A DNA stretch of 64,000 nt, taken from the NCBI GenBank assembly GCA_903822075.1, contig CAIJNK010000021.1, forward strand, positions 13,112 to 77,111. The letters are read 5' to 3'. This document shows, piece after piece, positions 2-17,775 of this stretch (its first letter is position 1; every line of letters begins with the position of its first letter). The notes under the pieces were generated by a model. It searched no databases and was not told the origin of the DNA. It saw only the letters and a program-made list of their open reading frames with translations. Made by a program: the position numbers and the translations under genes. The stretch is from an uncultured bacterium (GTDB taxonomy: Bacteria > Patescibacteriota > Minisyncoccia > Phycocordibacterales > GWA1-40-21).

Positions 2-2887
2 TCAAACGACAAACTATATGGTTATGCCTGGGGGGAAAACATCGGCTGGATTTCTTTGACCTGTGAAAATGACCCTACAGCTAACTGCAGCGGAAACAGA
101 AATTATGGAGTCAGCCAGGATCCAAACAAAAAAGGAGCACTGACCGGCTACGCTTGGGGAGAAAATGTGGGCTGGATAGACTTTTCTCCAGATGGAGGCG
201 GAGTAAATATCAGTACTTCTACAAGTGGCACTAACACCTTGAGTGGCTTTGCTTGGGGAGAAAATATTGGTTGGATTTCTTTTTCTGGCACCGCACAGGA
301 CGCCAGCTCTTATGGTGTAAATACCACCTGGACATATCCTAGCTACACTCTTAGATACATCGCCGGCGCAAATGGTACGATTATCGGTTCCTCTACTCAG
401 GTGGTAAAAGTTGGCGATCACGGAACAACAGTTACCGCTTTGCCAAATTCTCATTATCACTTTATCAGTTGGAGTGATGGTGCCACCACAACCACCAGAA
501 CAGATCTGGCTGATTCTGGAAATGTTTCCCTTACGGCCAATTTTGCCATTAACACCTTCACTTTTAGATATACAGCCGGAGTCAACGGTACGATTACCGG
601 TTCCTCTACTCAGGTAGTAAATTTTGGAGCAAACGGAACAACGGTGACAGCCAACCCAAATTCAGATTACAATTTCACCAGTTGGAGTGATGGAATTTTG
701 ACAGCCAGCCGGAGTGACCTAAACGCCTCAAGCAGTCTTTCAGTCAGTGCTTCTTTTGTGGCAAATGGCAATACCGGTGGTACCGCAATACCAGATTGTC
801 TATATGATAATCCAATTTGGAGTGCTTGTAGTGTCACTGGTTCACAAAGTAGAACCCTCACAGCCACCAACCAAACCTGTACTGGTGATGTATCAAAAGT
901 TGAAACTCAAAATTGTACCCCAATTATTGAAATATCCATTAATCCATCGGCCACCACAACAATCTTCGTTGGTGATAAAGTTCAATTTACCGCCACGGTC
1001 ACCGGAACCACCACGAACCAAGTGACTTGGATTTTACCCGATGAAGCCTCTGGAAGTTTGGATAATAACGGCCTATATACAGCCCCACAAACTGGAGGGG
1101 TATTCCACATAATGGTTCGACCACAAGCAGATATTAGTAAGTCAGCTATCGCGCTCGTCGATGTCCGATTAAAACCAGTTTGTACTGATTATGTGTACTC
1201 TGATTGGTCAACTTGTATTAACAGTATACAAACACGAATAGCTTCTTCAGGCATCCCGGTATCCTGTTCTGGTGGGGTCGCTGAAGTCCTTTCAAAATCT
1301 TGTGTTATGGCCACTTCAACCGCTACCACTACCACCACCTGTACTGGGTATACTTATTCTGACTGGTCAACTTGCATAAATAGTACCCAAAGCCGGACTG
1401 TACTAACCAGTTTACCGGACAACAGCTGTGTCGGTGGAGAAAAACAAATCACAGAACAAGCTTGTATTGTTAAACCAGTGACTGTGGCGTCAGATATAAC
1501 CGTCTCCCCTTCAACCCTGAGCGCCAATGATTCCTTCACCGTTAGTTCAGACGGTTGGCAAGCAAATAGTAACGTAAAAGTTTCTTTGTATTCAAACCCC
1601 ATTGTTCTGGGTAATCTGACTGCCAATTCCAATGGTGAAGCAAATGGTTCGTTCGATATGCCAAAAAACCTTGAATCAGGCGAACACACCGTTCAATTAG
1701 AAGGTATCGGGCAAAACGGATTACCGAGAGTAATGACGACAAAAATTACTTTGACCGGGTCCGACACTGGACCAAACGGTCCGACAAATAGGAATGTAAC
1801 CAATAACCGTTCAGCTGGTGGAACCAGCGGCATACTGGCTATATTGAATATCGGTAATTTTGTCACCGATAACGTTGCTGTCCTTGGTACCACCACAGAA
1901 AGAATTGTCTTGGGTGCCCAAAAAGTTCTAGAGAGTAAGCCTGGAGATATTGCAGCTAAAACCATTACAACCGCCGGAGTGGTTGGTGGCGGAGTTGCTG
2001 CCTCATCGGTATTTATTCTAAACGGCACCACAGTACTAGATATACTTTTCTTCCCATTAAAACTTTGGGGATTACTACTATCGGCTCTTGGTTTAAGAAA
2101 GAGGAATCGCCCTTGGGGAACCGTCTACGATAGCGTAACCAAACAACCAATCGATCCAGCTTATGTAACTCTTAAAAAAATTGGATCGCAGGAGGAAACG
2201 ATGTCCATTACCGACCTCGATGGCCGCTATGGATTCTTGGTCTCTCCTGGAAAATATACCCTCACCGCCAACAAGACAAACTACACTTTCCCTTCGAAAA
2301 AACTACTCGGACGATCAGCTGACGCCTTGTATAACAACCTATATTTTGGTGAGGAATTAGAGGCTCCGGTGGCCGGCGCCGTAATCAGCAAAAATATTCC
2401 CCTTGACCCAGATAAATTTGACTGGAACGAATTCGTCAAAGGTCAAAAGAAAATGATGAAGTTCTATTCCCGCAGGGAAAAAATAATCAGGATCGCCACG
2501 AATTGGATCTTTAGAATCGGCTTTATTGTCTCGCTACTTTCCCTATTCCTGGTTACCGCCCCATACAACTTCATTATTTTTGGTCTGTATCTCCTACTCA
2601 CGATACTCCGCAAATTCGGTCTCAAACAAAAAGCCTTAGGTTATCTGACGGAAAAAGACGGCACCCCTCTCTCCTTTGCTGTTATTCGAATATTTTCTCC
2701 AGAATTAGATATTGAGATAACCAATAAAGTGGCAGATAAAATAGGCCGATACTATTGCCTCGTGCCCAAAGGTAAATATTTATTAAAAGTGGAAAAGAAG
2801 AACGATGATGAGAGTTATTCCGTCGTTTATACTTCCCCAATCATCGATGCCTCAAACGGAATAATAAATAGGAACTTTATAGTCTAA
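2..2887 (+). CDS. Large cell-surface protein, 5' end truncated by the window edge. Contains W-rich YG(Y/F)AWGENIGWI(S/D)F repeats, two Listeria-Bacteroides (Flg_new)-type ~45-aa repeats, Cys-rich ~40-aa modules and a C-terminal TM-rich region.
   Basis: ORF 56..2887 continues in frame to position 2 with no stop (SNDKLYGYAWGENIGWISL..). Four copies of the GxAWGENxGWI motif. Repeats TFTFRYTAGVNGTITGSSTQVV..SDYNFTSWSDG and YTLRYIAGANGTIIGSSTQVV..SHYHFISWSDG. Cys modules CxxYxYSDWSTC...C.GG x2. Hydrophobic C-terminal segments. Confidence 0.6.
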   Translation, partial: SNDKLYGYAWGENIGWISLTCENDPTANCSGNRNYGVSQDPNKKGALTGYAWGENVGWIDFSPDGGGVNISTSTSGTNTLSGFAWGENIGWISFSGTAQDASSYGVNTTWTYPSYTLRYIAGANGTIIGSSTQVVKVGDHGTTVTALPNSHYHFISWSDGATTTTRTDLADSGNVSLTANFAINTFTFRYTAGVNGTITGSSTQVVNFGANGTTVTANPNSDYNFTSWSDGILTASRSDLNASSSLSVSASFVANGNTGGTAIPDCLYDNPIWSACSVTGSQSRTLTATNQTCTGDVSKVETQNCTPIIEISINPSATTTIFVGDKVQFTATVTGTTTNQVTWILPDEASGSLDNNGLYTAPQTGGVFHIMVRPQADISKSAIALVDVRLKPVCTDYVYSDWSTCINSIQTRIASSGIPVSCSGGVAEVLSKSCVMATSTATTTTTCTGYTYSDWSTCINSTQSRTVLTSLPDNSCVGGEKQITEQACIVKPVTVASDITVSPSTLSANDSFTVSSDGWQANSNVKVSLYSNPIVLGNLTANSNGEANGSFDMPKNLESGEHTVQLEGIGQNGLPRVMTTKITLTGSDTGPNGPTNRNVTNNRSAGGTSGILAILNIGNFVTDNVAVLGTTTERIVLGAQKVLESKPGDIAAKTITTAGVVGGGVAASSVFILNGTTVLDILFFPLKLWGLLLSALGLRKRNRPWGTVYDSVTKQPIDPAYVTLKKIGSQEETMSITDLDGRYGFLVSPGKYTLTANKTNYTFPSKKLLGRSADALYNNLYFGEELEAPVAGAVISKNIPLDPDKFDWNEFVKGQKKMMKFYSRREKIIRIATNWIFRIGFIVSLLSLFLVTAPYNFIIFGLYLLLTILRKFGLKQKALGYLTEKDGTPLSFAVIRIFSPELDIEITNKVADKIGRYYCLVPKGKYLLKVEKKNDDESYSVVYTSPIIDASNGIINRNFIV

Positions 2888-2904
2888 GCTGAAAATAAAA
2901 ACAG

Positions 2905-2964
2905 GCGGAAGGTTCTCGTAACGATTAGTCTTCGTTAAGTGAAGAAACCTTCCGCTCTTTTTTA
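2905..2964. terminator. Bidirectional intrinsic terminator: 10-bp stem GCGGAAGGTT/AACCTTCCGC with a T-run on both sides.
   Basis: Perfect inverted repeat at 2905-2914 / 2946-2955 followed by TTTTTT. Lies between convergent genes. Confidence 0.55.
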
Positions 2965-2969
2965 TTCAA

Positions 2970-3374
2970 TTATTTCTTCCTGGCTCTAAGAATTCTTGAA
3001 GCCTCACCAATAATGCTATCTACAGTCATTGACGCTTTGATCAGAAAGCTGGTAGCACCCAAATCAAGTCCTCTCCGAATATCTTCCCTTTCACCTAAGT
3101 TAGAGAGAATAACCACGGGGATATCCTTGGTCTTATCATTTTTCTTCAGTCCGGCCAAAACGTCAAAACCGCTCATCCCGGGTAAAAGTAAGTCAAGAAA
3201 TATGAGATCCGGAATATCTGATTCGACAACAGCCTGGGCTAACTCACCACTCTCAACGTGATGAACGGCACAACCATCATCAATCAATTTCTTGGAAACC
3301 AAGCCACCAAGAAACTTGTCGTCCTCGACAATAACGATCTTTGTTCCGGGAGTAAATTTTTGTAAATTTTCCAT
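2970..3374 (-). CDS. Stand-alone response-regulator receiver (CheY-like) domain protein.
   Basis: KIVIVEDD...D(54-like) LIFLDLLLPGMSGFDVL...K motif set over 134 aa. No output domain. Confidence 0.75.
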   Translation of the reverse strand: MENLQKFTPGTKIVIVEDDKFLGGLVSKKLIDDGCAVHHVESGELAQAVVESDIPDLIFLDLLLPGMSGFDVLAGLKKNDKTKDIPVVILSNLGEREDIRRGLDLGATSFLIKASMTVDSIIGEASRILRARKK

Positions 3375-3417
3375 AGTTGTTTAATTATACACGTTTTGTA
3401 AAAACAAGGCAAATCAA

Positions 3418-3822
3418 CTAAAATGACAGATTGCTCATATCCAGATTGGCCGCGTTCAAGCTATCATTTACGCTTTTGATTAAGCCTTGAGTATAAGCGT
3501 AAGCGAGCCAGATTATAATGATGGTCGACAGAATCAACAGCGTCCAGGCCACCTCCCCGATTAATTTGGCTTTAGGGTCTTTAGACCGGAAATATTTCAA
3601 TCCTGGCCAGCGGGTAATAAAAAGAAAACAAATCAGTGGCAAGATAATACTGAATAAATATATTCCAAGTTGAGTACCCAAACCAGTGGCGAGCGGAGTA
3701 GAATTTATTTTGGCGCCACAATTTGGACAAAAGTAATATGTCGGCAGGATGGGCTGGTGACAGGTTTCGCATATTTTCTGTGTCAATTCGTTGATATTAT
3801 TTTCTGTAAGATTTGTTTCCAT
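3418..3822 (-). CDS. Zinc-ribbon membrane protein, hypothetical.
   Basis: N-terminal CETC...CPNC zinc ribbon followed by 3 predicted TM helices. TGCTAGAAT -10-like box 12 nt upstream. Confidence 0.5.
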   Translation of the reverse strand: METNLTENNINELTQKICETCHQPILPTYYFCPNCGAKINSTPLATGLGTQLGIYLFSIILPLICFLFITRWPGLKYFRSKDPKAKLIGEVAWTLLILSTIIIIWLAYAYTQGLIKSVNDSLNAANLDMSNLSF

Positions 3823-3910
3823 AATTCACCTACTATTCTAGCAAGAATAAATTTTATTAGCTATTCCACTCAATCCGCCTGTTATTAAAACGATTGTATT
3901 TTTTAATATT

Positions 3911-4348
3911 TTATTTATAAGCAAATGGTAGTAATTCACTCTGCGAAGTTATCATTATTCTTGATTTATCACTATTCGAACAGATGACAATCAAATCATG
4001 ACCGGAAATATTTACCACCTCCTGCAATACTTGCCGGCAATTACCGCAAGGCGTTACCGGATTTACTATTCCCCCTTCTTTTTTCCCAATAATAGCTATA
4101 GCTACCAAATCCCTCTTACCCAGACTGTTAGCGGTAATAACAGCTGCCCGTTCGGAACAAATACTCGAAGGCGAGGATGAATTTACATAACTGGCGCCAG
4201 TAACTACTTCACCCGAAACCGCCCGAACGGCCGCCGCCACTTTAATCTGACTATTATACGGATTGTACGAATTCCCTAAGGCTTTTTCCGCTGCGTCCAA
4301 TAAATCTTTATGTTCCGGCGATAATTGTAAATATGATGTTTCAGTCAT
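3911..4348 (-). CDS. cdd: Cytidine deaminase (homotetrameric Cdd type).
   Basis: CSERAA ... PCGNCRQVLQE zinc-binding signature (C..E / PCxxC), 145 aa. Confidence 0.8.
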   Translation of the reverse strand: MTETSYLQLSPEHKDLLDAAEKALGNSYNPYNSQIKVAAAVRAVSGEVVTGASYVNSSSPSSICSERAAVITANSLGKRDLVAIAIIGKKEGGIVNPVTPCGNCRQVLQEVVNISGHDLIVICSNSDKSRIMITSQSELLPFAYK

Positions 4349-4452
4349 TCTATTTTATGATTAATAATACCAACTAGATATAGTGGCCATTATACTTGAA
4401 ATAAAGTGATTTTTAAAGTATCCTACATGAAGCTAATGACTTTAGCTATATT

Positions 4453-4521
4453 GCGGGTTCGTCTAAAGGTAGGACACATCCCTCTGAAGGATGGTATTGG
4501 GGTTCGAGTCCCTGACCCGCA
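4453..4521 (+). tRNA. tRNA-Gln (anticodon CTG), no encoded CCA.
   Basis: Acceptor GCGGGTT/GACCCGC. Anticodon stem CATCC/GGATG with loop CTCTGAA. T-arm GGGGTTCGAGTCCC. Confidence 0.75.
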
Positions 4522-4577
4522 GCTTGTAAGGTTTTAAATTCGATGTTATATTTTTATATATCAAATAATTTAATTAT

Positions 4578-5126
4578 ATGTCAGTAAAAATTACATACTT
4601 TGTACATGGTACGACAACAGATAATGAAAAACATCTCTCATCTGGATGGAAAGATGTTGAACTTTCTGATCTTGGAGTAAGCCAATCGATTGCTTTAAAG
4701 GATCAAACTAAAGATAAAAAATTTGATGTTGTATTTTGTTCTGATTTGAAACGCGCTCAAGATTCAGCAAAAATTACCTGGGATGGAGTTTACCATATTA
4801 TTTCTGATGCAAGACTTCGCGAATGTAATTATGGAGATTTAAACGGAGCGTCGTCAGATATTGTTGAACCAATGCAGGAAGAAGAATGTATCACTAAACC
4901 ATTTCCAAATGGTGAGAGTTATGAGGATGTAAAAATTCGTGTTGCAGATTTTCTTCAATTTCTAAAAAATAACTACAATGGTAAAAATGTTGCTATTGTC
5001 GCACACAAGGCTCCTCAAATAGCGATTGAAGTATTGATTAATGGTAAGACATGGGAACAGGCTCTAGCAGAAGACTGGAGAAAGACTAAGTCGTGGAAAC
5101 CAGGCTGGGGATATGTACTAAACTAG
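4578..5126 (+). CDS. Histidine phosphatase superfamily (phosphoglycerate-mutase-like) protein.
   Basis: N-terminal [13 protein letters not shown] (RHG-like catalytic motif) and overall branch-1 histidine phosphatase layout, 182 aa. Confidence 0.55.
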
Positions 5127-5163
5127 TTCCAATTTTATTCCACACGGCTTCTGGTCGAGGAGG

Positions 5164-5172
5164 TGTTATAAT
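5164..5172 (+). promoter_or_regulatory. Extended -10 box TGTTATAAT 6 nt upstream of the GIY-YIG ATG (leaderless-type promoter).
   Basis: TGnTATAAT match. Spacing places the TSS at the start codon. No SD. Confidence 0.45.
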
Positions 5173-5178
5173 ATTCCC

Positions 5179-5421
5179 ATGTATTTTACCTACATCCTTG
5201 AATGTGCCGATAAAACTTATTATGTCGGATGTACAAATGATCTTGAAAAAAGACTGCGGCAACATAATGGTTCTAAATGCGGCGCACATTATACCAAAAT
5301 ACGCCGACCAGTTATTTTGAAATACCAGGAAGAATTTAAGACATTAGCTGAGGCAAGAAGAAGAGAAGCTGAGATAAAGAGCTGGAAAAGAGAAAGAAAG
5401 ATTAACTTATTTGAAAAATAA
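5179..5421 (+). CDS. GIY-YIG nuclease-domain protein (UPF0213/YhbQ-like), 80 aa.
   Basis: [25 protein letters not shown] matches GIY-YIG core. Confidence 0.8.
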
Positions 5422-5491
5422 CCGAGGTAGATATTCCCTGCTCCGCAGCACTTGAATTTTGCAAAAAATATTGTAGTATCATACCGTGTTT

Positions 5492-6382
5492 ATGACCAAT
5501 AATAACACTCGCATAATATCTTTACTCGAAGAGGAACTTATTAAGTGCCACGCACCGGTGACAGGCTATTGCGTTACAACGGCGATTGTTACAGAAAAAG
5601 ATACATACATTGAGCATAATCATGAAGACCAAGACTCAGTTGTCTTTGAACATGCAGAGATAAGGGTATTGGAGAAAATTTTAAAGAAAGAACAAAGCCC
5701 AATAATTAAAAGGGTCTACATGTTGGGTGGCGGGGCAATCAAAAAAATAAAACACTATACGCCATGCTACGCTTGCACCCATAAAATGGCTCCATACATC
5801 ACTTCCAATACAACAGTTACACTTTTACCATTACTAGCCACCACTGCGCTGGTAACGTTTAACTACAATGAACTCCTCTCAAGTTATTCGGATGTGCCTT
5901 ACTCAAAATTTAGTAACACAAGCAAACAAGGAATACAAAAAGAGTTACGTGATAAAACTATTTTGAAGGGTAAAGATATCGATTTTATTGCCGACCTAAT
6001 ATTACTTGGTTTAAGAGAAAAGTTTGAGTTTTATTTGACCGGCAGTTCAACCGGGAGGGGCGGGGTCAGCAGATTACTTATGGAAAAAACTAAAACCAGT
6101 TATGGTGACATTGATATTATTGTCGTTGTTGCGGCCGATTATTACAAGATGGCAATAGAAAATATTGAAAAAGTCATTACACTACATTATGGCGCACACC
6201 TTAAAGAAGAAAGGCTAGTTCCCTTACGTCATAATAAATTAGGAGTTGTCCTTGGGAAGGCATATTACAGATGTAGTAATTCAAACGAAAAAATGTTAGA
6301 TTTTACTTTCAGTACGGATTTTAAAGGCTCATTATCCTACCATGCCTATGAGTTGAAAAATTGGTTCCATCAGTTGTCATAA
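5492..6382 (+). CDS. Fusion protein: N-terminal CDA-fold (cytidine/nucleotide deaminase-like, HAE + PCxxC) domain plus C-terminal Pol-beta-type nucleotidyltransferase domain.
   Basis: FEHAEIRVLE ... TPCYACTHKM (H/C/C zinc ligands). TGSSTGRGGVSRLL..SYGDIDIIVVV (GS...DxD NTase motif). The ORF-track start 5486 is a GTG; the first ATG is at 5492. Confidence 0.55.
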   Translation: MTNNNTRIISLLEEELIKCHAPVTGYCVTTAIVTEKDTYIEHNHEDQDSVVFEHAEIRVLEKILKKEQSPIIKRVYMLGGGAIKKIKHYTPCYACTHKMAPYITSNTTVTLLPLLATTALVTFNYNELLSSYSDVPYSKFSNTSKQGIQKELRDKTILKGKDIDFIADLILLGLREKFEFYLTGSSTGRGGVSRLLMEKTKTSYGDIDIIVVVAADYYKMAIENIEKVITLHYGAHLKEERLVPLRHNKLGVVLGKAYYRCSNSNEKMLDFTFSTDFKGSLSYHAYELKNWFHQLS

Positions 6383-6418
6383 CACTTTCGGCCACACGTT
6401 ACAAAGTGGGTAAATTAT

Positions 6419-7069
6419 ATGATTAAAAATTTAAGAGAAAAGCTTACTAGAATCGCCGAGGAGAGACAAGTAAAAGATGACCCCTCGCACGATTTTCAAC
6501 ATGTGAGACGAGTTTTGAATTTGGCAGTCAAAATAGGCAAGAGCGTAAATGCCGATGAAGATATCGTCATTCCGGCGGCCTTGTTCCATGATACGATTGT
6601 CTATAAAAAGAATTCCCCAGAAAGTAAGAATGAGGCAAACGAAAGCGCTGAAGTCGCCTCCAGAATACTGAGTAGTATAGAAGGATATCCTAAAGAAAAA
6701 ATTGCTAAGGTTGAAATTTGTATCAAACAATGTTCTTTTTCTAAAGGAATCAAGCCGGATTTACTGGAGTCAAAAGTCCTTCAGGACGCTGACCGATTAG
6801 AAGCGACCGGAGTTATCTCAATCATGAGAACTTTTTCCTCGTGTGGACACATGAATAGGCCATTATATGATCCACTGGACCCTTTCTGTGAAAAAGGGAC
6901 GAAAGATTTTAGATCCGGTATTGACCTCTTCTACCAGAGACTATTAGTTGTGGAGAAAACAATGCATACCGAACTGGCAAAGAAAATGGCCGGAGCCAGA
7001 ACAGACTTTTTAGAGAAGTTTCTAAAACAATTAAAAAAAGAGCTTACGGAATCAGATGTTTTAAAATAA
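6419..7069 (+). CDS. HD-domain metal-dependent phosphohydrolase.
   Basis: SHDFQHVRRV ... ALFHD ... LQDADRLEATG (H..H / HD / D motif set), 216 aa. Confidence 0.75.
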   Translation: MIKNLREKLTRIAEERQVKDDPSHDFQHVRRVLNLAVKIGKSVNADEDIVIPAALFHDTIVYKKNSPESKNEANESAEVASRILSSIEGYPKEKIAKVEICIKQCSFSKGIKPDLLESKVLQDADRLEATGVISIMRTFSSCGHMNRPLYDPLDPFCEKGTKDFRSGIDLFYQRLLVVEKTMHTELAKKMAGARTDFLEKFLKQLKKELTESDVLK

Positions 7070-7070
7070 A

Positions 7071-7098
7071 ACCCCTGGCACATTACTGCACCAGGGGT
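7071..7098. terminator. Bidirectional terminator hairpin ACCCCTGG-loop-CCAGGGGT between convergent HD and dcd genes.
   Basis: 8-bp perfect stem directly after the HD stop codon. Confidence 0.5.
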
Positions 7099-7119
7099 AA
7101 CTAATCCGGAAAGAACTTC

Positions 7120-7764
7120 TCAGAGTTTGTCTCGGGAAAACTTCGGCAACATCATAAATGGTGACCAAGCCGCCATCATCTGCTCGGTATTATCAGTCGT
7201 CTGATATTGTCCACCGGCGGTGGAATAAGACTCGTCGAGCGGGTCAACCTGATAGAAGGCAATCTGGGCCACCCGCATCCCGACCACCAGAACCACTGAT
7301 GTATCTTTGAGATGATTACTCATCTCCATGGTCCAGCGGTTACAGAAACCTAGGTCTCCCCAACCGGCGCACTTACAAACAGTGATACCAATCCGACCCA
7401 TGGAACTTCTAGCCCTCATCTCCGTGGTCACGCAGTTCCGACCGCCAATAAACTCATCCGTGTGGGCAAGAATGGTTTCCCCCGGCCCGAGAACGATGAG
7501 CTGGTCTGTAGACAAAATATTCCGCAAGCTACCATTTTGTTTCATCCACTCATGAGCCCTAATTGCCTGTTGGGGTTCTCCCCAGTACTTCTTTACGTCA
7601 TCAGAGTCGAAGGGATTAAAAATCCTCCTAGAGGACACTCCACGAAACGGCTGTTCTTGGAAAAAGTTCGGCCCGAGTCTCACATCGTAGCTTGTGGTTT
7701 GAAGATTGCTATTGTTAAACGGAAAAATAAAGATATTCCCGTTTTCCAAATGATGATTAATCAT
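7120..7764 (-). CDS. dcd: dCTP deaminase family (dUTPase-fold) protein.
   Basis: MINHHLENGNIFI..YDVRLG and ARSSMGRIGITV..AGWGDLGF resemble Dcd GRSSLARLGL..DPGW. The ORF-track start 7866 is a TTG 34 codons upstream; the ATG at 7764 matches the Dcd N-terminus. Confidence 0.65.
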   Translation of the reverse strand: MINHHLENGNIFIFPFNNSNLQTTSYDVRLGPNFFQEQPFRGVSSRRIFNPFDSDDVKKYWGEPQQAIRAHEWMKQNGSLRNILSTDQLIVLGPGETILAHTDEFIGGRNCVTTEMRARSSMGRIGITVCKCAGWGDLGFCNRWTMEMSNHLKDTSVVLVVGMRVAQIAFYQVDPLDESYSTAGGQYQTTDNTEQMMAAWSPFMMLPKFSRDKL

Positions 7765-7908
7765 TCCCCGACTCAACAACGAACGTCCTGGCGCCTTCTG
7801 TCTTCTTTTCACAATGTATTTCCTTTCCTGTTTAAGCCTTCTAAAGCAAGGATACTTTAAAAGCAAACTTTTTTCAAGCCAACAACAAAACTTAGCTAGT
7901 TTATATCC

Positions 7909-8844: not shown

Positions 8845-8852
8845 ATTTCGGT

Positions 8853-9534: not shown

Positions 9535-9543
9535 TTCCCTGAC

Positions 9544-9552: not shown

Positions 9553-10408
9553 GAAATCTTTCAATGTCACCATCCAGCACTTCATCCACCTTGGCGGTTT
9601 CCACTTCGGTGCGGTGATCCTTGACCATTTTATAAGGGTGTAATACATAAGAGCGGATTTGATTCCCCCACTCAATGGAAGTGGTTTTGGTCACGGACAA
9701 GCCTTTTTCCTTGGCCGCCTTTTCTTCCTCCCTTTTGGCAAATAACTTACCGGTTAAAATCTGCAGGGCTTTTTCTTTATTTTGCGGCTGGGAGCGCTCC
9801 GAAGTAGAGCGGACGGATATACCCGAAGGTAAATGAACAATCCGCACCGCTGTTTCTCTTTTGTTCACGTTTTGTCCGCCCGGACCGCCAGCTTTGGAAA
9901 TTTCAATCCTTAAATCACTTTCGGGGATGGAAAGCTCGGCGGATTTCTCAAATTTTGGCACAAATTCCACCAGGGAAAAAGAAGTTTGACGCAAGCTCTT
10001 GGCATTAAAAGGTGAGAGACGCACCAACCGATGAACGCCGGATTCGCTTTTCATTTTCCCGTAAACATTCTTACCAGACACTTCCAAAGTGATGTTTCGG
10101 TATCCCCCATGATCATTTTCATTTTCATCCAAGATCTTGTAGGACCAGTTTTGTTTGGCAAAAAATTTACAATACATTTGCAAAAGCATTTTGGAAAAAT
10201 CCTCCGCATCATCTCCGCCTGCCCCAGACAAGATGGTCAGAATCGCATCACCACTGTCATACTTTCCCACGCCGGCGATTTCCGCTTTTAATTCACTAAT
10301 TTCTTTTATAACAGCCTGGGCCCGATTTTTGTCAGCCCAAAAATCGGGCTTCATCATCTGCGCCTCCAAGTCCTCAAGTTTTTTAGTTTTATCCTGATTG
10401 TCAGCCAT
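9545..10408 (-). CDS. prfB: Peptide chain release factor 2, unusually short (287 aa). Lacks most of domain 1 and has no programmed frameshift site.
   Basis: SPF tripeptide (VRLSPFNAKS), GGQ motif (GGPGGQNVNK), RSYVLHPYKMVKDHRT. The ATG at 10408 abuts the tRNA-Thr gene. Confidence 0.85.
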   Translation of the reverse strand: MADNQDKTKKLEDLEAQMMKPDFWADKNRAQAVIKEISELKAEIAGVGKYDSGDAILTILSGAGGDDAEDFSKMLLQMYCKFFAKQNWSYKILDENENDHGGYRNITLEVSGKNVYGKMKSESGVHRLVRLSPFNAKSLRQTSFSLVEFVPKFEKSAELSIPESDLRIEISKAGGPGGQNVNKRETAVRIVHLPSGISVRSTSERSQPQNKEKALQILTGKLFAKREEEKAAKEKGLSVTKTTSIEWGNQIRSYVLHPYKMVKDHRTEVETAKVDEVLDGDIERFLV

Positions 10409-10412
10409 CCGG

Positions 10413-10485
10413 AGCCAAAGGTGAGGATTGAACTCACGACCCCCGCTTTACGAAAGCGGTGCTCTACCAACTGAGCTACTTTGGC
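10413..10485 (-). tRNA. tRNA-Thr (anticodon CGT).
   Basis: GCCAAAG..CTTTGGC acceptor. D-arm GCTCAGTTGGTAGAGC. Anticodon loop TTCGTAA. T-arm GTGAGTTCAATCCTCAC. Confidence 0.8.
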
Positions 10486-10629
10486 TTATTCAAGACCGGT
10501 ATTAGCCCTCACCTCAAAACTCGCCGTCGCTCGTTTTGGGCTGGGCACCGGCTCGCGGTTTTGATTGCTATCAAAACATCACTCCGCCGTTCAAACCCCG
10601 GACGCAAGCAAAACCATTTGCTTGCTTCT

Positions 10630-10705
10630 TGGAGCCAAGACCGGGGTTTGAACCCGGGACCTCGTCATTACCAATGACGTGCTCTACCAGCTGAGCTATC
10701 TTGGC
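10630..10705 (-). tRNA. tRNA-Thr (anticodon GGT), CCA encoded.
   Basis: GCCAAGA..TCTTGGC acceptor. Anticodon stem-loop CGTCA-TTGGTAA-TGACG. T-arm CCCGGGTTCAAACCCCGG. 3' TCCA. Confidence 0.8.
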
Positions 10706-10751
10706 TTATTAAATAAGCGCCATATAAAGATACCCTATTTCTTATTTTTTT

Positions 10752-11417
10752 TCAATCATTAAGCCCTGAAATCAACTTGTGGCCATAAAAGACAATTCTG
10801 TCTTTTATAAATAATTTTTCCAAAATATGGAATATGGTATAAGTAATAAAGAAGGCGCCCAGGACATCTATTGAATAATGCATATGTCCCAACAACACCA
10901 CAACAGCAAAAAAGACCGAGAAAGAAAGGAAAATGAACCGGAAGATTGGTTCCTTCCACCAGATCAAAGCCAAGAGAAAAGGGAGACCAGTATGACCGGA
11001 AAAGAATAAATCGCTGCCAAAGGATATCCGACTCACAATACTTTCAGGATCAATTGCAATCTGGGTTGGAAAAGGGGCAATGTGGGTCAAGGTTATAAAA
11101 ACAGACCGGATGAGATAAAATACGGCAATCCCCTTCAAAGTAAAAGGGATTTTTTTGGGATCCATAAAACAGGCCAGAATAATAAGAAAAAACATCACTA
11201 AAGTTCCATAAATAAACAAACTAGAAATGTTATAGGTTGGAATGTTACTCAAAACAAGATCCGTTACCGAGCTGCTGGCTTTCTCATTGGCATAATAACT
11301 GGCAAAATAATTAACAAAAAGACTGGCCCCTAAAAAGACCGTTGATGCCAAAAAAGACAAAACAAAACCCTTATCAGAGAAATATTCTTTTATTTTTTTT
11401 CGATAATTATCTTTCAT
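10752..11417 (-). CDS. PAP2-family membrane phosphatase (phosphatidic acid phosphatase type 2-like).
   Basis: 6 TM helices. SGHTGLPF (PSGH-like) and GHMHYSIDV (SRx5HxxxD-like) motifs. Start chosen at MKDNYRKK (11417); the ORF-track start 11450 directly abuts a hairpin. Confidence 0.5.
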   Translation of the reverse strand: MKDNYRKKIKEYFSDKGFVLSFLASTVFLGASLFVNYFASYYANEKASSSVTDLVLSNIPTYNISSLFIYGTLVMFFLIILACFMDPKKIPFTLKGIAVFYLIRSVFITLTHIAPFPTQIAIDPESIVSRISFGSDLFFSGHTGLPFLLALIWWKEPIFRFIFLSFSVFFAVVVLLGHMHYSIDVLGAFFITYTIFHILEKLFIKDRIVFYGHKLISGLND

Positions 11418-11904
11418 AATCCAGTGACTCCCGAATATTAACATGCCCATGCAAAAATCCCAAACACAAATGTGCTGGGATTTTCGTCGGATTCCAAAGG
11501 TCAGACCTAAGGAGAAACCGGCAGAGTGTTCACTAGAACCTGACCCTTATCAAGCAGTGAACTTGCCAAGTGAAAGAACTGGAGGAGGATATGCTCAAAT
11601 GCCTGAAAGATGTCTGGCATAAGAGACCTAAGGATCAAAATGGTAAGCCCCAGTCCCAAAGCTCCTAAAATTCTCATAATTTTAAAAGAAGGGGGCTTTT
11701 AAGGCGTCCGACAACGCCTTGGGCAACCAATGACCCAAATCCCCTCCCCATAGAAATTTCAATCACTTAAAATCTCCGAGGGGAGGGTCTCCTGACTCAG
11801 TTTTTCAAATAGCTTTTTTGCTCTCAAAACCTACCCAAAATATAGCATATATTTGACCATATTACAACTAGACACATAGCCATTATTACAGTCTAATTTC
11901 TTTG

Positions 11905-11976
11905 CGCGGGCGATGGGTGCTGACCCCACGGCCTCTCCCGTGACAGGGGAGTGCTCTACCGTTGAGCTACGCCCGC
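11905..11976 (-). tRNA. tRNA-Asp (anticodon GTC).
   Basis: Acceptor GCGGGCG/CGCCCGC. Anticodon stem-loop CTCCC-CTGTCAC-GGGAG. Atypical T-loop GTCAGCA. Confidence 0.7.
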
Positions 11977-12048
11977 GTTTTTTCAAATCTCTCAAAAAAG
12001 AGATTGCTACTATTATACATAAAATAACCCTTTAGACAAATCTATTTG

Positions 12049-12119
12049 TGCCGATGAATGGAATTGAACCATTTTTTGAGGCTTATGAGTCCCCCGTTCT
12101 ACCATTGAACTACATCGGC
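12049..12119 (-). tRNA. tRNA with CAT anticodon (Met, fMet or Ile-lysidine type).
   Basis: Acceptor GCCGATG/CATCGGC. D-arm GTTCAATGGTAGAAC. Anticodon loop CTCATAA. T-arm ATGGTTCAATTCCAT. Confidence 0.7.
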
Positions 12120-12196
12120 AAATATTAATCGTCAAAACAGCTTGCTTAATATAGCATTTTAAGCCCAAAAATCAATAGAAACACGACCTTAATTGT

Positions 12197-12265
12197 TGCG
12201 GGGGCCCGATTTGCACGGGCGTCTCAAGGTTATGAGCCTCGCGAATTACTGTTACTCTACCCCGC
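12197..12265 (-). tRNA. Second CAT-anticodon tRNA-like gene (short D-arm).
   Basis: GCGGGGT..CCCCGC acceptor. Anticodon stem-loop CGAGG-CTCATAA-CCTTG. T-arm GCCCG-TGCAAAT-CGGGC. Some helices are imperfect. Confidence 0.45.
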
Positions 12266-12354
12266 TAACGACTATAATACATCATTATGGTAAAAACGCA
12301 ACTTCCCTTTCCCCGCCTTTTCTAAGGAGGGGTGGCGTTCTGACGCCGGGGTGG

Positions 12355-12990
12355 TCAGATAAATTCAAACTCTCTGAATACCGCCTCGTAAAGGCCGATT
12401 ACTCTTTTGGCCTCTCGCTCATTGATCAGAAAGTCCGATCCTTCGTGGGCAATTTGATTTCTGATTTTATGAGCTTCCCAGGCGGCTTCAATATTAGTAA
12501 AATCAGATGGCTCTATAGATTTTAGTTTCTCACTGATGCTTTCCTGCAAATAGCCCATCTTCTCCAAAATATCCGCCAGCATAATATCACACTCCAGTAT
12601 AGCCAACTTCCAATCACTGGAGTTGGCGGAATTAATATGAGTCAAAACTTTTTGCCACTTTTCATTCACTACCGGTGCCATAGTTTTACTTTCCCTCACC
12701 ATTTTTTGCTCTGGCAAAACGAGTGCCTCGTGCATCTGCCGACGAATCCGCATCAAGTTGTTGGCTGACCAAACAATCACAAAAATCAAAAGAAGTGATA
12801 AAATAAAGGAAAAGGAAAAGAGCCGAAGCATAACTGTCACAGCATAATCCGGTAAAAGAAGCCAGAAATTATGCCAAGTGTCTGCCCAATTCTGCCCCGC
12901 AGTATTAGTATAGGCGGCCTTTATCAAAGCCGTAATTAATGAGACTAAATCATAGGAATGAAGAGCGTCTAGTGGTTGTGCTGGTTGCAT
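12355..12990 (-). CDS. Membrane-anchored hypothetical protein with a C-terminal Rx4H (HEPN-like) motif.
   Basis: One TM helix (FSFSFILSLLLIFVIVW). C-terminal AWEAHKIRNQIAHEGS. Confidence 0.4.
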   Translation of the reverse strand: MQPAQPLDALHSYDLVSLITALIKAAYTNTAGQNWADTWHNFWLLLPDYAVTVMLRLFSFSFILSLLLIFVIVWSANNLMRIRRQMHEALVLPEQKMVRESKTMAPVVNEKWQKVLTHINSANSSDWKLAILECDIMLADILEKMGYLQESISEKLKSIEPSDFTNIEAAWEAHKIRNQIAHEGSDFLINEREAKRVIGLYEAVFREFEFI

Positions 12991-13022
12991 ATCTAATAGT
13001 GATATTAATAACTACCAGCGTA

Positions 13023-14447
13023 TTATAACATATTTTCTATTTTCTTTGCCATCTCAAATAGTATTTTCTCATTGCCTGGCTTGGCCAGAAGCTGAAGCCC
13101 GAGTGGGAGTTTTTTACCATCTACTTCTTTATAACCAGAAGGGACCGACAAGGCAGGTAGACCAGCCAAGTTTGCTGGAACGGTAAATATGTCCTCCAGA
13201 TAAAGCTGCAACGGATCATTTATTTTCTCCCCTATTTTGAAGGCGGCATCGGGCGTCGTCGGCATAATTATGATATCCACTTCTTCAAAAGCCTTCCGAT
13301 AATCTTCCCGAATCAAATCTCTGACAATATTGGCCTTGTTATAATAAGCATCATAATAACCCGAAGATAATATATAAGTACCTAGAATAATGCGTCTCTT
13401 TACTTCCGCCCCAAAACCCGCCTGTCTGGATTTAAAATAGTCCTCTACCCCAGTTTGTCCATCAACATGAAGACCGTAACGAACACCGTCAAATCTAGTT
13501 AAATTGGAAGATTCTTCTGCAAAAACTAAGGTGTAATATGTGGCGAGAGAATATTTAAGATAAGGAAAATCAATTTCCGTTACTTCACAACCCAGACCTT
13601 TGATATTTTCTATCGCTTTATTAAAACTATCTATTACTTCCTTTTTTACACCCTTACTGGTAACAAAACCTTGAGGAATGGCAATCTTAGGTTTTGGATT
13701 TTGACTTTTAACCTCAAACCGCGTCACACTTGTGCTGTCCATCTCATCTTTTCCGACGATTACTTCAAAAACCACTTGTACATCATCAGCGGTTTTACCA
13801 ATAGCACCTATTTGATCAAATGAAGAAGCTGCGGCCATGAGTCCGTAGCGGGAAACTGCTCCATAACCCGGCTTAAGACCGACAACACCACAAAAACTTG
13901 ATGGCTGTCTGATTGACCCACCAGTGTCCGAGCCAAGAGCCACCAAAGCCATGTCAGCAGCCACAGCCGCTGCCGAACCACCCGAAGTTCCACCGGCCAC
14001 CCTCTCTAAATCATGCGGGTTATGGGTAACGCCAAAAGCCGAATTCTCTGTAGATCCGCCCATCGCAAACTCATCCATGTTGGTTCGACCCAGAAAAACC
14101 GCTCCAGCTTCCTTTAATTTCTTAATAACCGTGGCATCGTAAGTGGCGTGGTAATTTTCTAATATTTTTGAAGCGGAACTGGCAATACGGCCTTTAATCA
14201 AAATATTATCTTTCACCGCGACTGGTATACCGGTCAATAAAGTCACATTTTCTTTTCTAGCCACTCTGTCATCTGCCGCTTTTGCCTGTTCTAAAACGTC
14301 AGAAAAGATTTCCAGATAGGCGTGTATTTCTCCATCTTTCTTTTTGATATTTTCCAAATAGGCATTAGTTAAATCAACACAAGTATACTCCCCTTTCAAC
14401 AGAGCTTCATGAGCTTTTTTAATTGTCAGATCTTTTAGATTAATCAT
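13023..14447 (-). CDS. gatA: Glutamyl-tRNA(Gln) amidotransferase subunit A (amidase signature family).
   Basis: GGSSGGSAAAVAA amidase signature, 474 aa. Overlaps gatC by 4 nt. Confidence 0.9.
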   Translation of the reverse strand: MINLKDLTIKKAHEALLKGEYTCVDLTNAYLENIKKKDGEIHAYLEIFSDVLEQAKAADDRVARKENVTLLTGIPVAVKDNILIKGRIASSASKILENYHATYDATVIKKLKEAGAVFLGRTNMDEFAMGGSTENSAFGVTHNPHDLERVAGGTSGGSAAAVAADMALVALGSDTGGSIRQPSSFCGVVGLKPGYGAVSRYGLMAAASSFDQIGAIGKTADDVQVVFEVIVGKDEMDSTSVTRFEVKSQNPKPKIAIPQGFVTSKGVKKEVIDSFNKAIENIKGLGCEVTEIDFPYLKYSLATYYTLVFAEESSNLTRFDGVRYGLHVDGQTGVEDYFKSRQAGFGAEVKRRIILGTYILSSGYYDAYYNKANIVRDLIREDYRKAFEEVDIIIMPTTPDAAFKIGEKINDPLQLYLEDIFTVPANLAGLPALSVPSGYKEVDGKKLPLGLQLLAKPGNEKILFEMAKKIENML

Positions 14448-14725
14448 AATATTTTCTTTACCTTCAAATAATCCCTCTCTTTTCTTGGGAACTCATCTGT
14501 AACAACCTTAGTATTCAAACCGGGCTTATTTTTTACTTCATCAACCCTGAGCACATTTCTTAACTCACCGGCTTTCCTTTCCTCTCCAGTGGTAGTCGTT
14601 ACTTCCTTTATTTGATCCACGTAGCTTAAAATAGCACTTATATCCTTTAAATAAGCCTGTTTCTCTGCCTCGGTTAATTCAATCCTGGCCAATTGTGCCA
14701 ACTTTTCGACATCTTTTATTTCCAT
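14444..14725 (-). CDS. gatC: Glutamyl-tRNA(Gln) amidotransferase subunit C.
   Basis: 93 aa. LARIELTEAEKQAYLKDISAIL. Directly upstream of gatA. Confidence 0.8.
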   Translation of the reverse strand: MEIKDVEKLAQLARIELTEAEKQAYLKDISAILSYVDQIKEVTTTTGEERKAGELRNVLRVDEVKNKPGLNTKVVTDEFPRKERDYLKVKKIL

Positions 14726-14748
14726 ACCGAAAAGGATAACATAAATTC

Positions 14749-16755
14749 CTAAGAAATTAAACCCAGAAACTTTTTTTCATCCAGAATCTCTACCCCTATT
14801 TTTTTGGCTTTTTCGAGCTTTGATCCGGCGTTTTCACCGGCAACCAAATAGTTTGTTTTAACCGATACTGATTCAGAGACATCACCACCAAGGGCACGGA
14901 TTTTATCCTTAGCCTCATCACGTGACATTTTAGATAGTGTGCCGGTAATTACAAAAGTCTTGCTTGAAAACTTTTTACCATCACCCTGAGTAGAGACGGG
15001 AGATTTTTGTATCTCGACTTGTTTTAGCAGACTGTTTAATGTTTTCACATTATTCTTGTCGGTAAACCAATCTACCAGAGCTTGGGCGACGATCGGACCG
15101 ATTCCATCCAACACCTGTAATTCATCAAAGTTTGCGACCTGTAATTTTTCTATTGTTCCAAAATATTTAGCCAGATCGATAGCTGTTTCTTCACCAACTT
15201 GAGGAATGGACAATCCAACCAAAAATTTTGCTAAATTGATTTGCGTGGCCTTTTCCACCGAAACAAGTAAGTTATCGACGGATTTTTCAGCAAACCGTGG
15301 CAGGGCAAGCAAATCCCCACGTTTCAAAGTAAAAATGTCAGCAAAATCTGAAATCAGATTGTTATCCAACAGAACATCAATTATCTTTGGCCCGCAACCA
15401 TCCATATCAAAAGCTTTCTTGGAAACAAAATGATAAAACCTTCGGCGCTTCTGGGCAAAGGAGTCTTTACCGACGCAACGCCAAGCTGCCTGACCGGGTA
15501 CCCGCTCGATTCTCCCATCCCCTCCGCAATCCGGAACAATAGTTGGAAATTTATAAGGTTTTTCTTTTCCAGTTCTCAGATCTGTTAAAACTTGTACAAT
15601 ATCTGGGATCACATCCCCTGCTTTCTGCAAGATCACAGTATCTCCCACTCGTATATCCAATCTTTTTATCTCGTCCTCGTTATGTAAAGTAGCTCGAGAA
15701 ACTACTGAGCCGGCGACTCGTACCGGTGTGAGGTGAGCTACGGGTGTCAGTACACCGGTCCGCCCCACCTGAAGCACAATATCCTCCACCATGGTTGTTA
15801 CTTGTTCCGCCGGGAATTTATAGGCTACGCCCCAACGTGGTGTTTTACCGGTATAACCTAAAGTTTCTTGGATTTTTCGGGAATTGATCTTTATAACAAT
15901 TCCGTCAAGCCCGTACTCCAATTTGTCCTTTTTTCTTGTCCATTCTTCGTAAAATTTTTGCACCCCGTCCAAATCAGCAAAAACCTTAAAAAAAGGATTG
16001 GTTTTAAAACCTAGTTTCTTTAATAATTTAAGCTCCTCACTTTGTGTGTTCGGCATTTCCAGCCCATCCAGCTTATCGATATCATAAACAAAAGTGTCCA
16101 GGTTTCTTTTGGCCGTCACTTTGGGATCTAGCTGCCTGATGGACCCGGCGCCGGCATTTCTGGTATTTGCAAAGATTGGCTCACCAGTTTTTTTTCGTTC
16201 TTCATTTATCCTTTCTAATTCTTTCTTATTCATCCAGGCTTCCCCCACCACCACCGCACCCACTTTTTCTTGCAAGAAAAAAGGAATCGATTTTATAGTC
16301 TTTAGATTTTCTGTTACACTCTCTCCCACCTGGCCGTCCCCGCGCGTCGCCCCTTGTACAAATTCCCCGTTCATATAAGTCAGGATAACTTTCAAACCAT
16401 CTATTTTTAATTCGCAACAGAACTCCAGTTTTTCATTTTTTAGGCTTTGTTCTTTTTCCATCATACGCCTGATTTTCTCCTCCCACTTTTTTAACTCTTC
16501 AAAATCAAAGACGTCATCAAAAGACCACTGACGGATTTCGTGCTTTACTTTTTTAAACTCCTTCAAAGGCACACCGCCTATCCTTTGTGATGGACTCAAC
16601 GGAGAAATGAGCTCGGGGTGCTTAACCTCGATCTCCAGTAGTTCTCGCATCAGGGAATCATAGGCCTCATCCGTAATCTCCGGTTTATCCAACACATGGT
16701 AGAGATATTGATGGTGCTCTATGGCCTGTATCAATTTTTCATAACGCTCTTTCAT
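14749..16755 (-). CDS. ligA: NAD-dependent DNA ligase LigA.
   Basis: KIDG adenylation motif (ELKIDGLKV), OB, Zn finger, HhH and BRCT regions over 668 aa. Confidence 0.9.
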   Translation of the reverse strand: MKERYEKLIQAIEHHQYLYHVLDKPEITDEAYDSLMRELLEIEVKHPELISPLSPSQRIGGVPLKEFKKVKHEIRQWSFDDVFDFEELKKWEEKIRRMMEKEQSLKNEKLEFCCELKIDGLKVILTYMNGEFVQGATRGDGQVGESVTENLKTIKSIPFFLQEKVGAVVVGEAWMNKKELERINEERKKTGEPIFANTRNAGAGSIRQLDPKVTAKRNLDTFVYDIDKLDGLEMPNTQSEELKLLKKLGFKTNPFFKVFADLDGVQKFYEEWTRKKDKLEYGLDGIVIKINSRKIQETLGYTGKTPRWGVAYKFPAEQVTTMVEDIVLQVGRTGVLTPVAHLTPVRVAGSVVSRATLHNEDEIKRLDIRVGDTVILQKAGDVIPDIVQVLTDLRTGKEKPYKFPTIVPDCGGDGRIERVPGQAAWRCVGKDSFAQKRRRFYHFVSKKAFDMDGCGPKIIDVLLDNNLISDFADIFTLKRGDLLALPRFAEKSVDNLLVSVEKATQINLAKFLVGLSIPQVGEETAIDLAKYFGTIEKLQVANFDELQVLDGIGPIVAQALVDWFTDKNNVKTLNSLLKQVEIQKSPVSTQGDGKKFSSKTFVITGTLSKMSRDEAKDKIRALGGDVSESVSVKTNYLVAGENAGSKLEKAKKIGVEILDEKKFLGLIS

Positions 16756-16791
16756 TTTTTATCTTGCAACTCAATCAGTGTGTGATTCAAT

Positions 16792-17775
16792 CTATCTAAC
16801 ACATTTTGTTGTATAACTGTTTCCTTTAACTGCCCATTCGGTTATTTGATTTGTAAAATATCTAACATGGACATCGTAACCACAGTCATGACAATATGAC
16901 CAATCTCCGCTTTCCGATGTCCAAAAGCTTGTATCATGAAATCCCCACGGATTTCCCCAGGCATCCCACGTTAGCCCTCCAGCGATAGTTTCGTTTACCG
17001 TCGGGGTCCTCCAACCAATACTTGCGCAATAACTCTGTGCGTTATCCCAAGTTTGAATTGTTTCTTGGGCTTGAGTCTGCCAAACTATAGAACAACTTTG
17101 GGAATCCGTCATGGTTGCGTTTCCGGTACATGGCTGATTAGTAGCCGTCAGAGTTCTAGATTTTGTACCGGCAGGCATACAAATGCCCCAAGCAGGGTTA
17201 TCATAAACACAAGCTGGTCCAACGGGTGCCACATTAACACTTCCCTTTATCACCTGTTCGATCTTTCTTTCCACTCGGTCTCCACTATCTGAATCGTGAC
17301 CGACGGATGAAATAGTGGTCTTCAAATATTGGCTCTGCAAACCACGGTTAAATATTTCCTTGGTAAAGGTGACCTCAAAGTTCTGATCGCCAGCAGTAAT
17401 AAACATTTTGGGTATATCAACTTGGACCTTAGTAGAGACAAGTGGGGTAGCGCCGTCAAAGTTACCGGTCACCTGTATTGATCCAGAATTTCCACAATTA
17501 ATGGTCCCGGGGGTACTTACCGCCTTAAAAAAGGAAGATGGTATTTGTCCTCTTTTTTCATCCCAATACTTTATGCATTCCAAACCGCTATCAGCCGCGT
17601 AAAAAGCTTGGACCGAAAGCTGATTTGCCTTGGAGATAGCCATTTCTTTTAAGGTAATACTAAAAATAGAAAGCCCGATGGTCAATAGAAGGCTGGAAAC
17701 CAGAACGGAAAAAAGCAGAGCAAAACCTTGTTTGCGGAAGGAAACAAAAAACTTTTTTTGAAAATCTTTAATCAT
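16792..17775 (-). CDS. Pilus-associated secreted protein with a pseudopilin-like N-terminus and Cys-rich C-terminal modules (candidate minor pilin/tip adhesin).
   Basis: KQGFALLFSVLVSSLLL prepilin-like hydrophobic segment lacking Glu5. Shares a CxYDNPxWxxC..SRTLTATNQxCTG module with the giant surface protein. Start taken at MIKDF (17775) adjacent to the upstream pilin stop. Confidence 0.5.
   Translation of the reverse strand: MIKDFQKKFFVSFRKQGFALLFSVLVSSLLLTIGLSIFSITLKEMAISKANQLSVQAFYAADSGLECIKYWDEKRGQIPSSFFKAVSTPGTINCGNSGSIQVTGNFDGATPLVSTKVQVDIPKMFITAGDQNFEVTFTKEIFNRGLQSQYLKTTISSVGHDSDSGDRVERKIEQVIKGSVNVAPVGPACVYDNPAWGICMPAGTKSRTLTATNQPCTGNATMTDSQSCSIVWQTQAQETIQTWDNAQSYCASIGWRTPTVNETIAGGLTWDAWGNPWGFHDTSFWTSESGDWSYCHDCGYDVHVRYFTNQITEWAVKGNSYTTKCVR

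Follow-up and report, generated by a model that had tools for sequence, protein, structure and literature searches.

Why does a protein encoded at the far end of a type IV pilus (T4P) operon carry the same cysteine-rich module as a surface protein whose gene lies 16 kb away? This question is raised by a 64,000-nucleotide stretch of DNA from an uncultured bacterium of the Patescibacteriota (assembly GCA_903822075.1, contig CAIJNK010000021.1, positions 13,112 to 77,111), the whole of which we refer to as the window. Host recognition by the ultrasmall, episymbiotic Patescibacteria is largely unexplained, and type IV pili are the attachment device with the best experimental support in these organisms. 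An original prediction, made from the letters of the window, proposed that the pilus-operon protein (here, the pilus protein) is a tip adhesin that re-uses a binding module of the surface protein. Our analysis favors a modular adhesin built on a tip pilin: the pilus protein is probably a modular minor pilin of the K/PilX type that shows an adhesive head at the pilus tip. However, the likelier binding head is a lectin-like terminal domain rather than the cysteine module, which may serve as a stalk or co-adhesin.

We found that both module sequences quoted in the original prediction are present and that their similarity is real. The matching copy on the surface protein (copy A, CLYDNPIWSACSVTGSQSRTLTATNQTCTGDVSKVETQNC) runs Cys-to-Cys at 797-916 on the + strand, near the ~781-900 originally given but about 16 nt off; the pilus copy (CVYDNPAWGICMPAGTKSRTLTATNQPCTGNATMTDSQSC) occupies 17092-17211 on the - strand. 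Cys-to-Cys, 22 of 40 residues are identical, and BLASTP aligned the two copies with 23 of 47 identities (49%, E=2e-13). When the second sequence was shuffled with its four cysteines kept at their own positions, none of 20000 shuffles attained the observed Smith-Waterman score of 140 (z=15.9). This result indicates that the match is not an effect of composition or of cysteine spacing.

The surface protein had been described as giant; at full length it has just 1041 aa. Its gene (2..2887, + strand; assigned by translation, Pfam matches and identity to a known protein) enters the window without its first 240 nt, which encode 80 N-terminal residues including the signal/anchor segment. The C-terminal 961 residues are encoded in the window, and all of them are 100% identical to the corresponding part of the 1041-aa protein P0023. 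The window-encoded part begins with GYAWGENIGWI-type repeats and two InlB B-repeat (Flg_new_2) domains, continues with module A, an Ig-like domain, modules B and C and a further β-rich region, and ends in hydrophobic/transmembrane segments with CarboxypepD_reg domains. Hidden Markov model (HMM) searches and alignment placed module A at 791..922 (HMM envelope; residues 344-387 of the full-length protein), module B, of the canonical subtype YxYSDWSTC..QTR, at 1175..1309, and module C at 1334..1471, all on the + strand. A six-frame HMM scan of the 64-kb window detected no copies beyond these three and the pilus copy. The 16 kb that separate the two genes encode housekeeping functions (a response regulator, deaminases, FtsEX, tRNAs, gatCA and ligA), and there is no operonic link between the surface-protein and pilus-protein genes.

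How specific is this sharing? A profile built from the four window copies was searched against 1.84 billion representative proteins and retrieved 910 of them at E<=1e-3 (342 at E<=1e-10); consensus and subtype statistics were derived from 588 full-length copies in the best 150 of these 910 proteins. The homology asserted for the two genes holds, but the module belongs to a large family of 910 representatives and is present in three copies on the surface protein alone. Within this family, the pilus copy and copy A have in common the subtype YDNPxW...SRTLTAxNQxCTG (SRTLTATNQxCTG in copy A), in which a near-invariant proline is missing; elsewhere among the 588 copies, this subtype occurs only in P0035 and P0110. 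Of the 588, it is copy A of its own genome that the pilus copy matches best (60.8 bits at 53% identity), a finding that suggests ancient shuffling of domains belonging to one shared subtype. Copy A, in turn, is 60-62% identical to the P0035 and P0110 copies and thus closer to them than to the pilus copy. Within the window, A scored 140 against the pilus copy but 44-53 against B or C, and B scored 118 against C.

The DNA of copy A and of the pilus copy is only 61% identical, and the peptide RTLTATNQ is identical in both yet differs at the third position of every codon. This low identity, together with saturated synonymous sites, rules out that the module was recently duplicated within the genome or spread by gene conversion; a recent duplication is also contradicted by the greater closeness of copy A to the copies of other organisms. 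These sequence comparisons imply that the two copies are old and under purifying selection.

What kind of domain is the module? Its consensus, xCTSFTYSxWGxCxxxGTQTRTVxSSxPxGCTGGxPxLSQSC, contains four invariant cysteines and Y, W, R and P residues that are each conserved in 97-98% of the 588 copies. It is found in arrays of up to 14 copies per protein, typically in tandem and interleaved with Ig-like domains. Most carriers are surface proteins, secreted or anchored, in which the partners include cohesin, cytochrome-c-like motifs and LamG-like N-termini. No Pfam model reached its gathering threshold with single module copies: the window copies scored 16.2 bits against PTN_MK_C (PF01091; cut-off 25.3) and 13.0 bits against TSP_1 (PF00090; cut-off 21.6), and weak matches to these two models were seen in 12 and 6, respectively, of 51 copies. 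Two multi-copy family proteins did pass the whole-protein cut-off of PTN_MK_C (46.2 and 29.9 bits). The best sequence matches in the PDB were midkine and pleiotrophin. An AlphaFold2 (AF2) model from a 51-sequence alignment had a predicted local distance difference test score (pLDDT) of 90, and Foldseek matched it best to midkine-a/midkine-b (TMq 0.69-0.73), Unc5A, Plasmodium TRAP and pleiotrophin. Each of these scores is modest, as expected at 44 residues, and the three methods agree. Because the Pfam and PDB sequence matches and Foldseek converge, we name the module for the thrombospondin type 1 repeat (TSR) and midkine.

The predicted structure has an irregular first strand bearing aromatics (Y, W) and a conserved arginine, followed by two regular β-strands, which may correspond to the fold of the TSR superfamily and the midkine C-domain. 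Hit lists from both structure and sequence were dominated by properdin/BAI1/TRAP-type TSRs and by midkine/pleiotrophin. In contrast to classical TSRs, the module contains four cysteines rather than six, lacks WxxW, and has one conserved W plus a Y and a single conserved R. The midkine C-domain is a four-cysteine domain, and the module, with cysteines at comparable distances of 10, 17 and 12 residues, resembles it more than it resembles classical TSRs. Unlike the TSR/midkine superfamily, the module family is bacterial and is not basic, and its window copies fall below the Pfam thresholds. These data point to a bacterial TSR/midkine-like four-cysteine domain, as judged from modeling and weak homology, that resembles the superfamily without formal Pfam membership. 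The module appears to define a large, uncatalogued bacterial domain family that has no Pfam model of its own. Such a family bears on the supposed animal origin of the TSR/midkine fold and would improve the annotation of surface proteins in the candidate phyla radiation (CPR).

To which kind of pilin is the module attached? Read from its ATG at 17775, the gene of the pilus protein (16792..17775, - strand) encodes 327 aa. With the upstream ATG (17805) at which public gene calls start, the product has 337 aa and the ORF overlaps the pilin gene before it by 29 nt. The first 176 of the 327 residues (17248..17775) form a pilin module with a leader ending in RKQG, the mature N-terminus FALLFSVLVSSLLLTIGLSIF and an end at GDRVERKIEQVIKG. 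As had been predicted, the N-terminus is prepilin-like and lacks Glu5: the sequence FRKQG|FALLFSVLVSSLLLTIGLSIF places Gly at -1, directly before a hydrophobic α1N segment of about 20 residues, and Phe at +5 (RKQG|FALLFSVL), and GFALLFSVL is invariant across 13 aligned homologs. The N-terminal half has a pilin fold, a long α1 helix packed on an antiparallel β-sheet. The pilus protein matches neither N_methyl nor TIGR02532, whereas its six neighboring pilins all match TIGR02532 and the three of them scanned against Pfam match N_methyl. It aligned to PilX_N (PF14341) over profile positions 2-51 of 51, at 13.1 bits against a cut-off of 25.5; five of 13 homologs also matched PilX_N weakly, and seven homologs are called PilX by JGI. 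A PDB sequence search with the whole pilus protein gave no match.

We found that a complete type IV pilus operon, running on the - strand from 29626 down to 16792, ends with the gene of the pilus protein, in agreement with its predicted place at the end of seven pilin-like genes. Pfam matches and synteny with a related locus (L001) identified the machinery at 22378..29626: PilM, an ORF (open reading frame) in the PilN position, PilO, a 117-aa ORF, PilB (MshEN+T2SSE), a response regulator, a PilT-like ATPase and PilC (T2SSF). These genes are followed by three small major-type pilins (21623-22033, 21040-21483 and 20518-21000, by NCBIfam), the prepilin peptidase PilD (19678..20511; A24_N_bact + Peptidase_A24 in Pfam) and three canonical minor pilins with GFxxxE N-termini (18969-19649, 18351-18965 and 17777-18346, by Pfam N_methyl and NCBIfam). 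The canonical minor pilins show weak N-terminal matches, below curated cut-offs, to GspH (E=9e-4), GspJ (E=1.7e-5) and GspI/PilV (E=2e-5). The L001 operon is syntenic gene for gene, and its 182-aa counterpart of the pilus protein is directly followed by ligA.

The pilus protein is thus encoded with H-, I- and J-like minor pilins and lacks Glu5, as is characteristic of the K type, and it resembles the GspK/PilX 'K' subunit in being the Glu5-less last member of a four-gene set with GspH/GspJ/GspI-like members (PMC9934059). We did not find in it the α-domain that GspK carries inserted in its β-sheet. The K subunit of the HIJK minor-pilin complex, which has no Glu5, caps the filament, with no subunit above it that would need charge neutralization (PMC9934059). 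A tip position for the pilus protein is therefore suggested by the absence of Glu5, by the PilX_N-like alignment and PilX naming, and by this literature on K subunits. A further analogy is PilA of Streptococcus sanguinis, a Glu5-less pilin that is modeled there as the first subunit to be added.

The pilin core is followed by about 150 aa past residue 176: the linker SVNVAPVG, the TSR-like four-cysteine module (residues 187-230; envelope 17086..17217, - strand; by HMM, alignment and model) and a 99-aa domain. Is this extension usual for the family? A single-sequence search returned 17 homologs of 179-195 aa, which cover only the first half of the pilus protein and all stop in the alignment at GDRVERAIxxxY, its residue 176. 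A profile search retrieved 461 pilin-family members, and the 120 of these among the matches listed are 143-203 aa long. A scan of GTDB with exact peptides of the window protein gave no relative; patterns derived from the profile then gave 14 loci in GTDB species representatives, from Paceibacterota/Parcubacteria metagenome-assembled genomes (MAGs), some of them labeled Saccharibacteria. In L001 as in these 14 loci, 2-6 residues separate GDRVERAIxxxY from the end of the ORF. All 135 relatives examined (143-203 aa) thus end right after the pilin core, and the extension was seen only in the window protein. Used as a query, the 149-aa extension found only the protein itself in a word-indexed search and gave no phmmer match in any of the fetched loci and representatives.

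The unusual fusion is not an assembly artifact. The junction of pilin and extension recurs in contigs of other ENA assemblies, with identities of 100% and 99.96% across it, and a third sample contains the 337-aa call; a chimera is ruled out by the same junction in at least three independent assemblies. By sequence comparison, therefore, the extension is a real, lineage-specific graft on the pilin core. The pilus protein has the composition of a modular pilin sensu Raynaud et al. 2021 (PMC8179133): a core, a linker, a TSR-like module that is also present in hundreds of non-pilin surface proteins, and a further domain. The extension carries a net charge of -5 (pI 4.86), and the TSR-like module itself is neutral. 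In one contig from the same population (L082; ENA ERZ18625277 scaffold_47979), 179 bp of the pilin core (window 17354-17532) are replaced by ten unrelated bases, and the resulting frameshift splits the gene into calls of 104 and 177 aa; this deletion may reflect misassembly, or else a genuine strain variant or a pseudogene.

The C-terminal domain of the extension (16795..17091, - strand; residues 229-327) is Trp-rich and acidic, with 9 Trp and 4 Cys in 99 aa, a pI of 4.8 and the motif TWDNAQSYCASIGWRTPTVNE. A Trp-rich composition is typical of carbohydrate-binding surfaces. Along profile positions 10-117 of 117, the domain matched Lcl_C/DUF1566 (PF07603) at 17.3 bits (cut-off 34.9, E=0.006), and its best PDB sequence match was the equivalent motif of SUMF2, a member of the FGE-sulfatase family (E=0.52). 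In the Pfam clans, Lcl_C and SUMF2 both belong to the C-type-lectin-like fold group. The AF2 model of the domain was of low confidence and unreliable. We therefore describe the terminal domain, on profile match, motif and composition, as tentatively Lcl_C/DUF1566-like and C-type-lectin-like: a lead, not a result. The C-terminal domain (CTD) of Lcl, the Legionella collagen-like protein, is the carbohydrate-binding head of an adhesin (PMC11162425). In addition to the weak full-length profile match, the two have a W...R...E core motif in common, and the terminal domain, like the Lcl-CTD, would be displayed at the surface on a stalk. They differ in that the Lcl-CTD is basic and has no disulfides, whereas the terminal domain is acidic with four cysteines and a putative lectin-like fold. 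We rejected a diversity-generating retroelement acting on this region, since the window contains no template repeat: within its 64 kb, no sequence of more than 18 nt from 16792-17110 is repeated.

Modular pilins were defined as a class in S. sanguinis and are widespread, including in the CPR (PMC8179133). Like PilB (vWA) and PilC (lectin) of S. sanguinis, the pilus protein joins a small pilin module by a short linker to a non-T4P module (PMC8179133, PMC9934059), is encoded among minor pilins, and is predicted to be adhesive and located at the tip. The carrier here, however, is a Glu5-less K/PilX type and theirs are canonical Glu5 pilins; the graft here is predicted to be TSR/midkine-like plus putatively Lcl_C-like, and theirs is vWA or a ConA-like lectin. 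PilX1 and PilX2 of Nanosynbacter lyticus TM7x combine non-canonical signal peptides with C-terminal domains of a lectin-like kind, and efficient host binding requires PilX2 (PMC11623550). These too are minor pilins of Patescibacteria with large C-terminal accessory domains, and they are proposed tip adhesins (PMC11623550). Their accessory domains, in contrast, are a β-jelly-roll and an RCC1 β-propeller, TM7x is a saccharibacterium whereas the relatives here are Paceibacterota/Parcubacteria, and the pilin family here normally has no accessory domain. What is new is thus the graft of a TSR-like and a putatively lectin-like domain on a Glu5-less pilin; the modular-pilin way of building pilus adhesins is known.

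TSR-like modules are also present on other pilin-like proteins. In a syntenic operon (L044; ..pilC, three major-type pilins, pilD, minor pilins, ligA), the first minor pilin after pilD has a canonical N-terminus (KRGFSIMELLVV), two TSR-like modules and a Cys-rich tail. The protein P0157 combines a PilX_N-like N-terminus (E=0.002), Fib_succ_major (E=1e-6) and three TSR-like modules, with both Pfam scores below cut-off, and a canonical pilin encoded beside pilC in L020 also carries Fib_succ_major. With the Fib_succ_major profile, hhalign matched the terminal domain of the pilus protein over the motif only (14 columns), and BLASTP of that domain against P0157 gave no match. We dropped P0042, which has a PilX-like N-terminus and five modules, as support, since it is not encoded in a pilus operon. 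The last minor pilin before ligA in L044 (9087-9962, + strand; 291 aa) has a Cys-rich C-terminal extension of its own (..CTDGRQNGTETGKDCGGSCPTAC..) that is unlike the TSR-like module, and a similar motif (CSDGIQNGDELGVDCSGSCPLC) stands before the modules of P0042.

How might such a protein work? We propose that PilD, encoded four genes upstream, would cleave the pilus protein after Gly17. The mature protein would then prime assembly together with the three other minor pilins and, being first in, would end at the tip, a placement made by analogy with GspK and S. sanguinis PilA. The TSR-like module, presumably drawn from the large pool of modules in bacterial surface proteins and stapled by disulfides, would hold out the Trp-rich head as a rigid stalk or as an accessory adhesive unit. 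The ligand of the head, on a host cell or a partner cell, would most likely be a glycan or a protein, and PilT-driven retraction would then draw the cells together.

Could the cysteine module itself be the binder? In the original prediction it was; carried further, this version would have pilus and surface protein bind one host ligand in two steps, long-range capture by the pilus and then close docking by the surface protein. The distinct subtype that, among the 588 copies, the pilus copy and copy A form with only P0035 and P0110 would fit this version, which we consider unlikely, as would the pilus copy's best match in its own genome and the retention of RTLTATNQ, a sign of purifying selection given that synonymous sites are saturated; moreover, eukaryotic TSRs (TRAP, thrombospondin) and midkine are binding domains. 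However, the typical setting of the family, tandem arrays among Ig-like domains, is stalk-like, the pilus protein has a separate terminal domain, and the two genes are not co-operonic. The greater closeness of copy A to the P0035/P0110 copies likewise argues against specific co-evolution of the two genes. Quite unlikely, in our estimate, is a more far-reaching scenario in which a large and apparently undescribed prokaryotic TSR/midkine branch (at least 910 clusters at 50% identity) is recurrently grafted on Patescibacteria minor pilins for host recognition, and a rare subtype, on pilus tip and surface protein, binds one host ligand for capture and then docking.

Alternatively, the extension might not be adhesive at all: it could cap or stabilize the minor-pilin priming complex, or be a neutral, lineage-specific accretion. 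Relatives function without it, and the frameshifting 179-bp deletion in L082 hints that the gene may be dispensable or variable. We nevertheless judge this distinctly improbable, given that several assemblies contain the same uninterrupted ORF, that the cysteines and fold-defining residues are conserved, and that nine tryptophans in 99 aa are a composition typical of carbohydrate-binding surfaces. Analogous grafts on CPR and streptococcal pilins, too, are adhesive (PMC11623550, PMC8179133, PMC9934059). The grafted modules could also capture DNA at the tip of a competence pilus, as ComZ does in Thermus. Because the extension is acidic and the module neutral, DNA or another polyanion is an unfavorable ligand, and TM7x mutants of the thin pilus (T4P-2), including pilX2, have no competence defect (PMC11623550); DNA capture is thus very improbable. 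We retain the modular tip adhesin, with the terminal domain as its probable head. The locus is a natural experiment, in which an otherwise invariant family of ~180-aa tip pilins gained a 150-aa module pair in one lineage. The pair is a candidate lineage-specific determinant of host specificity and a tractable fragment for binding assays.

Several other features of the window were noted. A stand-alone response-regulator receiver (24655-25062, - strand) lies between pilB and pilT and is conserved in L001; another (2970-3374, - strand) is encoded just downstream of the surface-protein gene, and we saw no cognate kinase near either. Divergent from the adjoining pilM, a gene at 29588-30391 (+ strand) has a weak, sub-threshold phosphoribosyltransferase match and is possibly ComF-like, a hint that DNA uptake could be a further function of the pilus. 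It is followed at 30397-32368 (+ strand) by a NOX/ferric-reductase-like membrane flavoprotein (Ferric_reduct + FAD_binding_8 + NAD_binding_1) and then a cytochrome b5-domain protein that is either secreted or anchored. Such a redox pair is unusual in a reduced CPR genome; P0031, a protein with the TSR-like module, also has a Cyt-b5 domain.

A low-GC (0.37) stretch at 38491-41214 (- strand) looks like a defense or mobile island: it encodes a 670-aa Schlafen-group-3/DUF2075-type helicase fused to a LexA-like S24 peptidase domain, and the adjoining gene encodes a 234-aa protein with a weak, sub-threshold HNH-endonuclease match. Three deaminase-type genes, encoding a cytidine/dCMP deaminase (3911-4348, - strand), a protein with a weak APOBEC-like deaminase match (5486-6382, + strand) and a dCTP deaminase-like protein (7120-7866, - strand), cluster with an HD-domain protein and a histidine phosphatase and may form a nucleotide-salvage block. 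The window also contains a tmRNA gene (62205-62631, + strand) and eight tRNA genes (at 4452, 10413, 10633, 11905, 12049, 12196, 53945 and 59478), five of which are grouped at 10.4-12.3 kb, between the RF/FtsEX genes and gatA.

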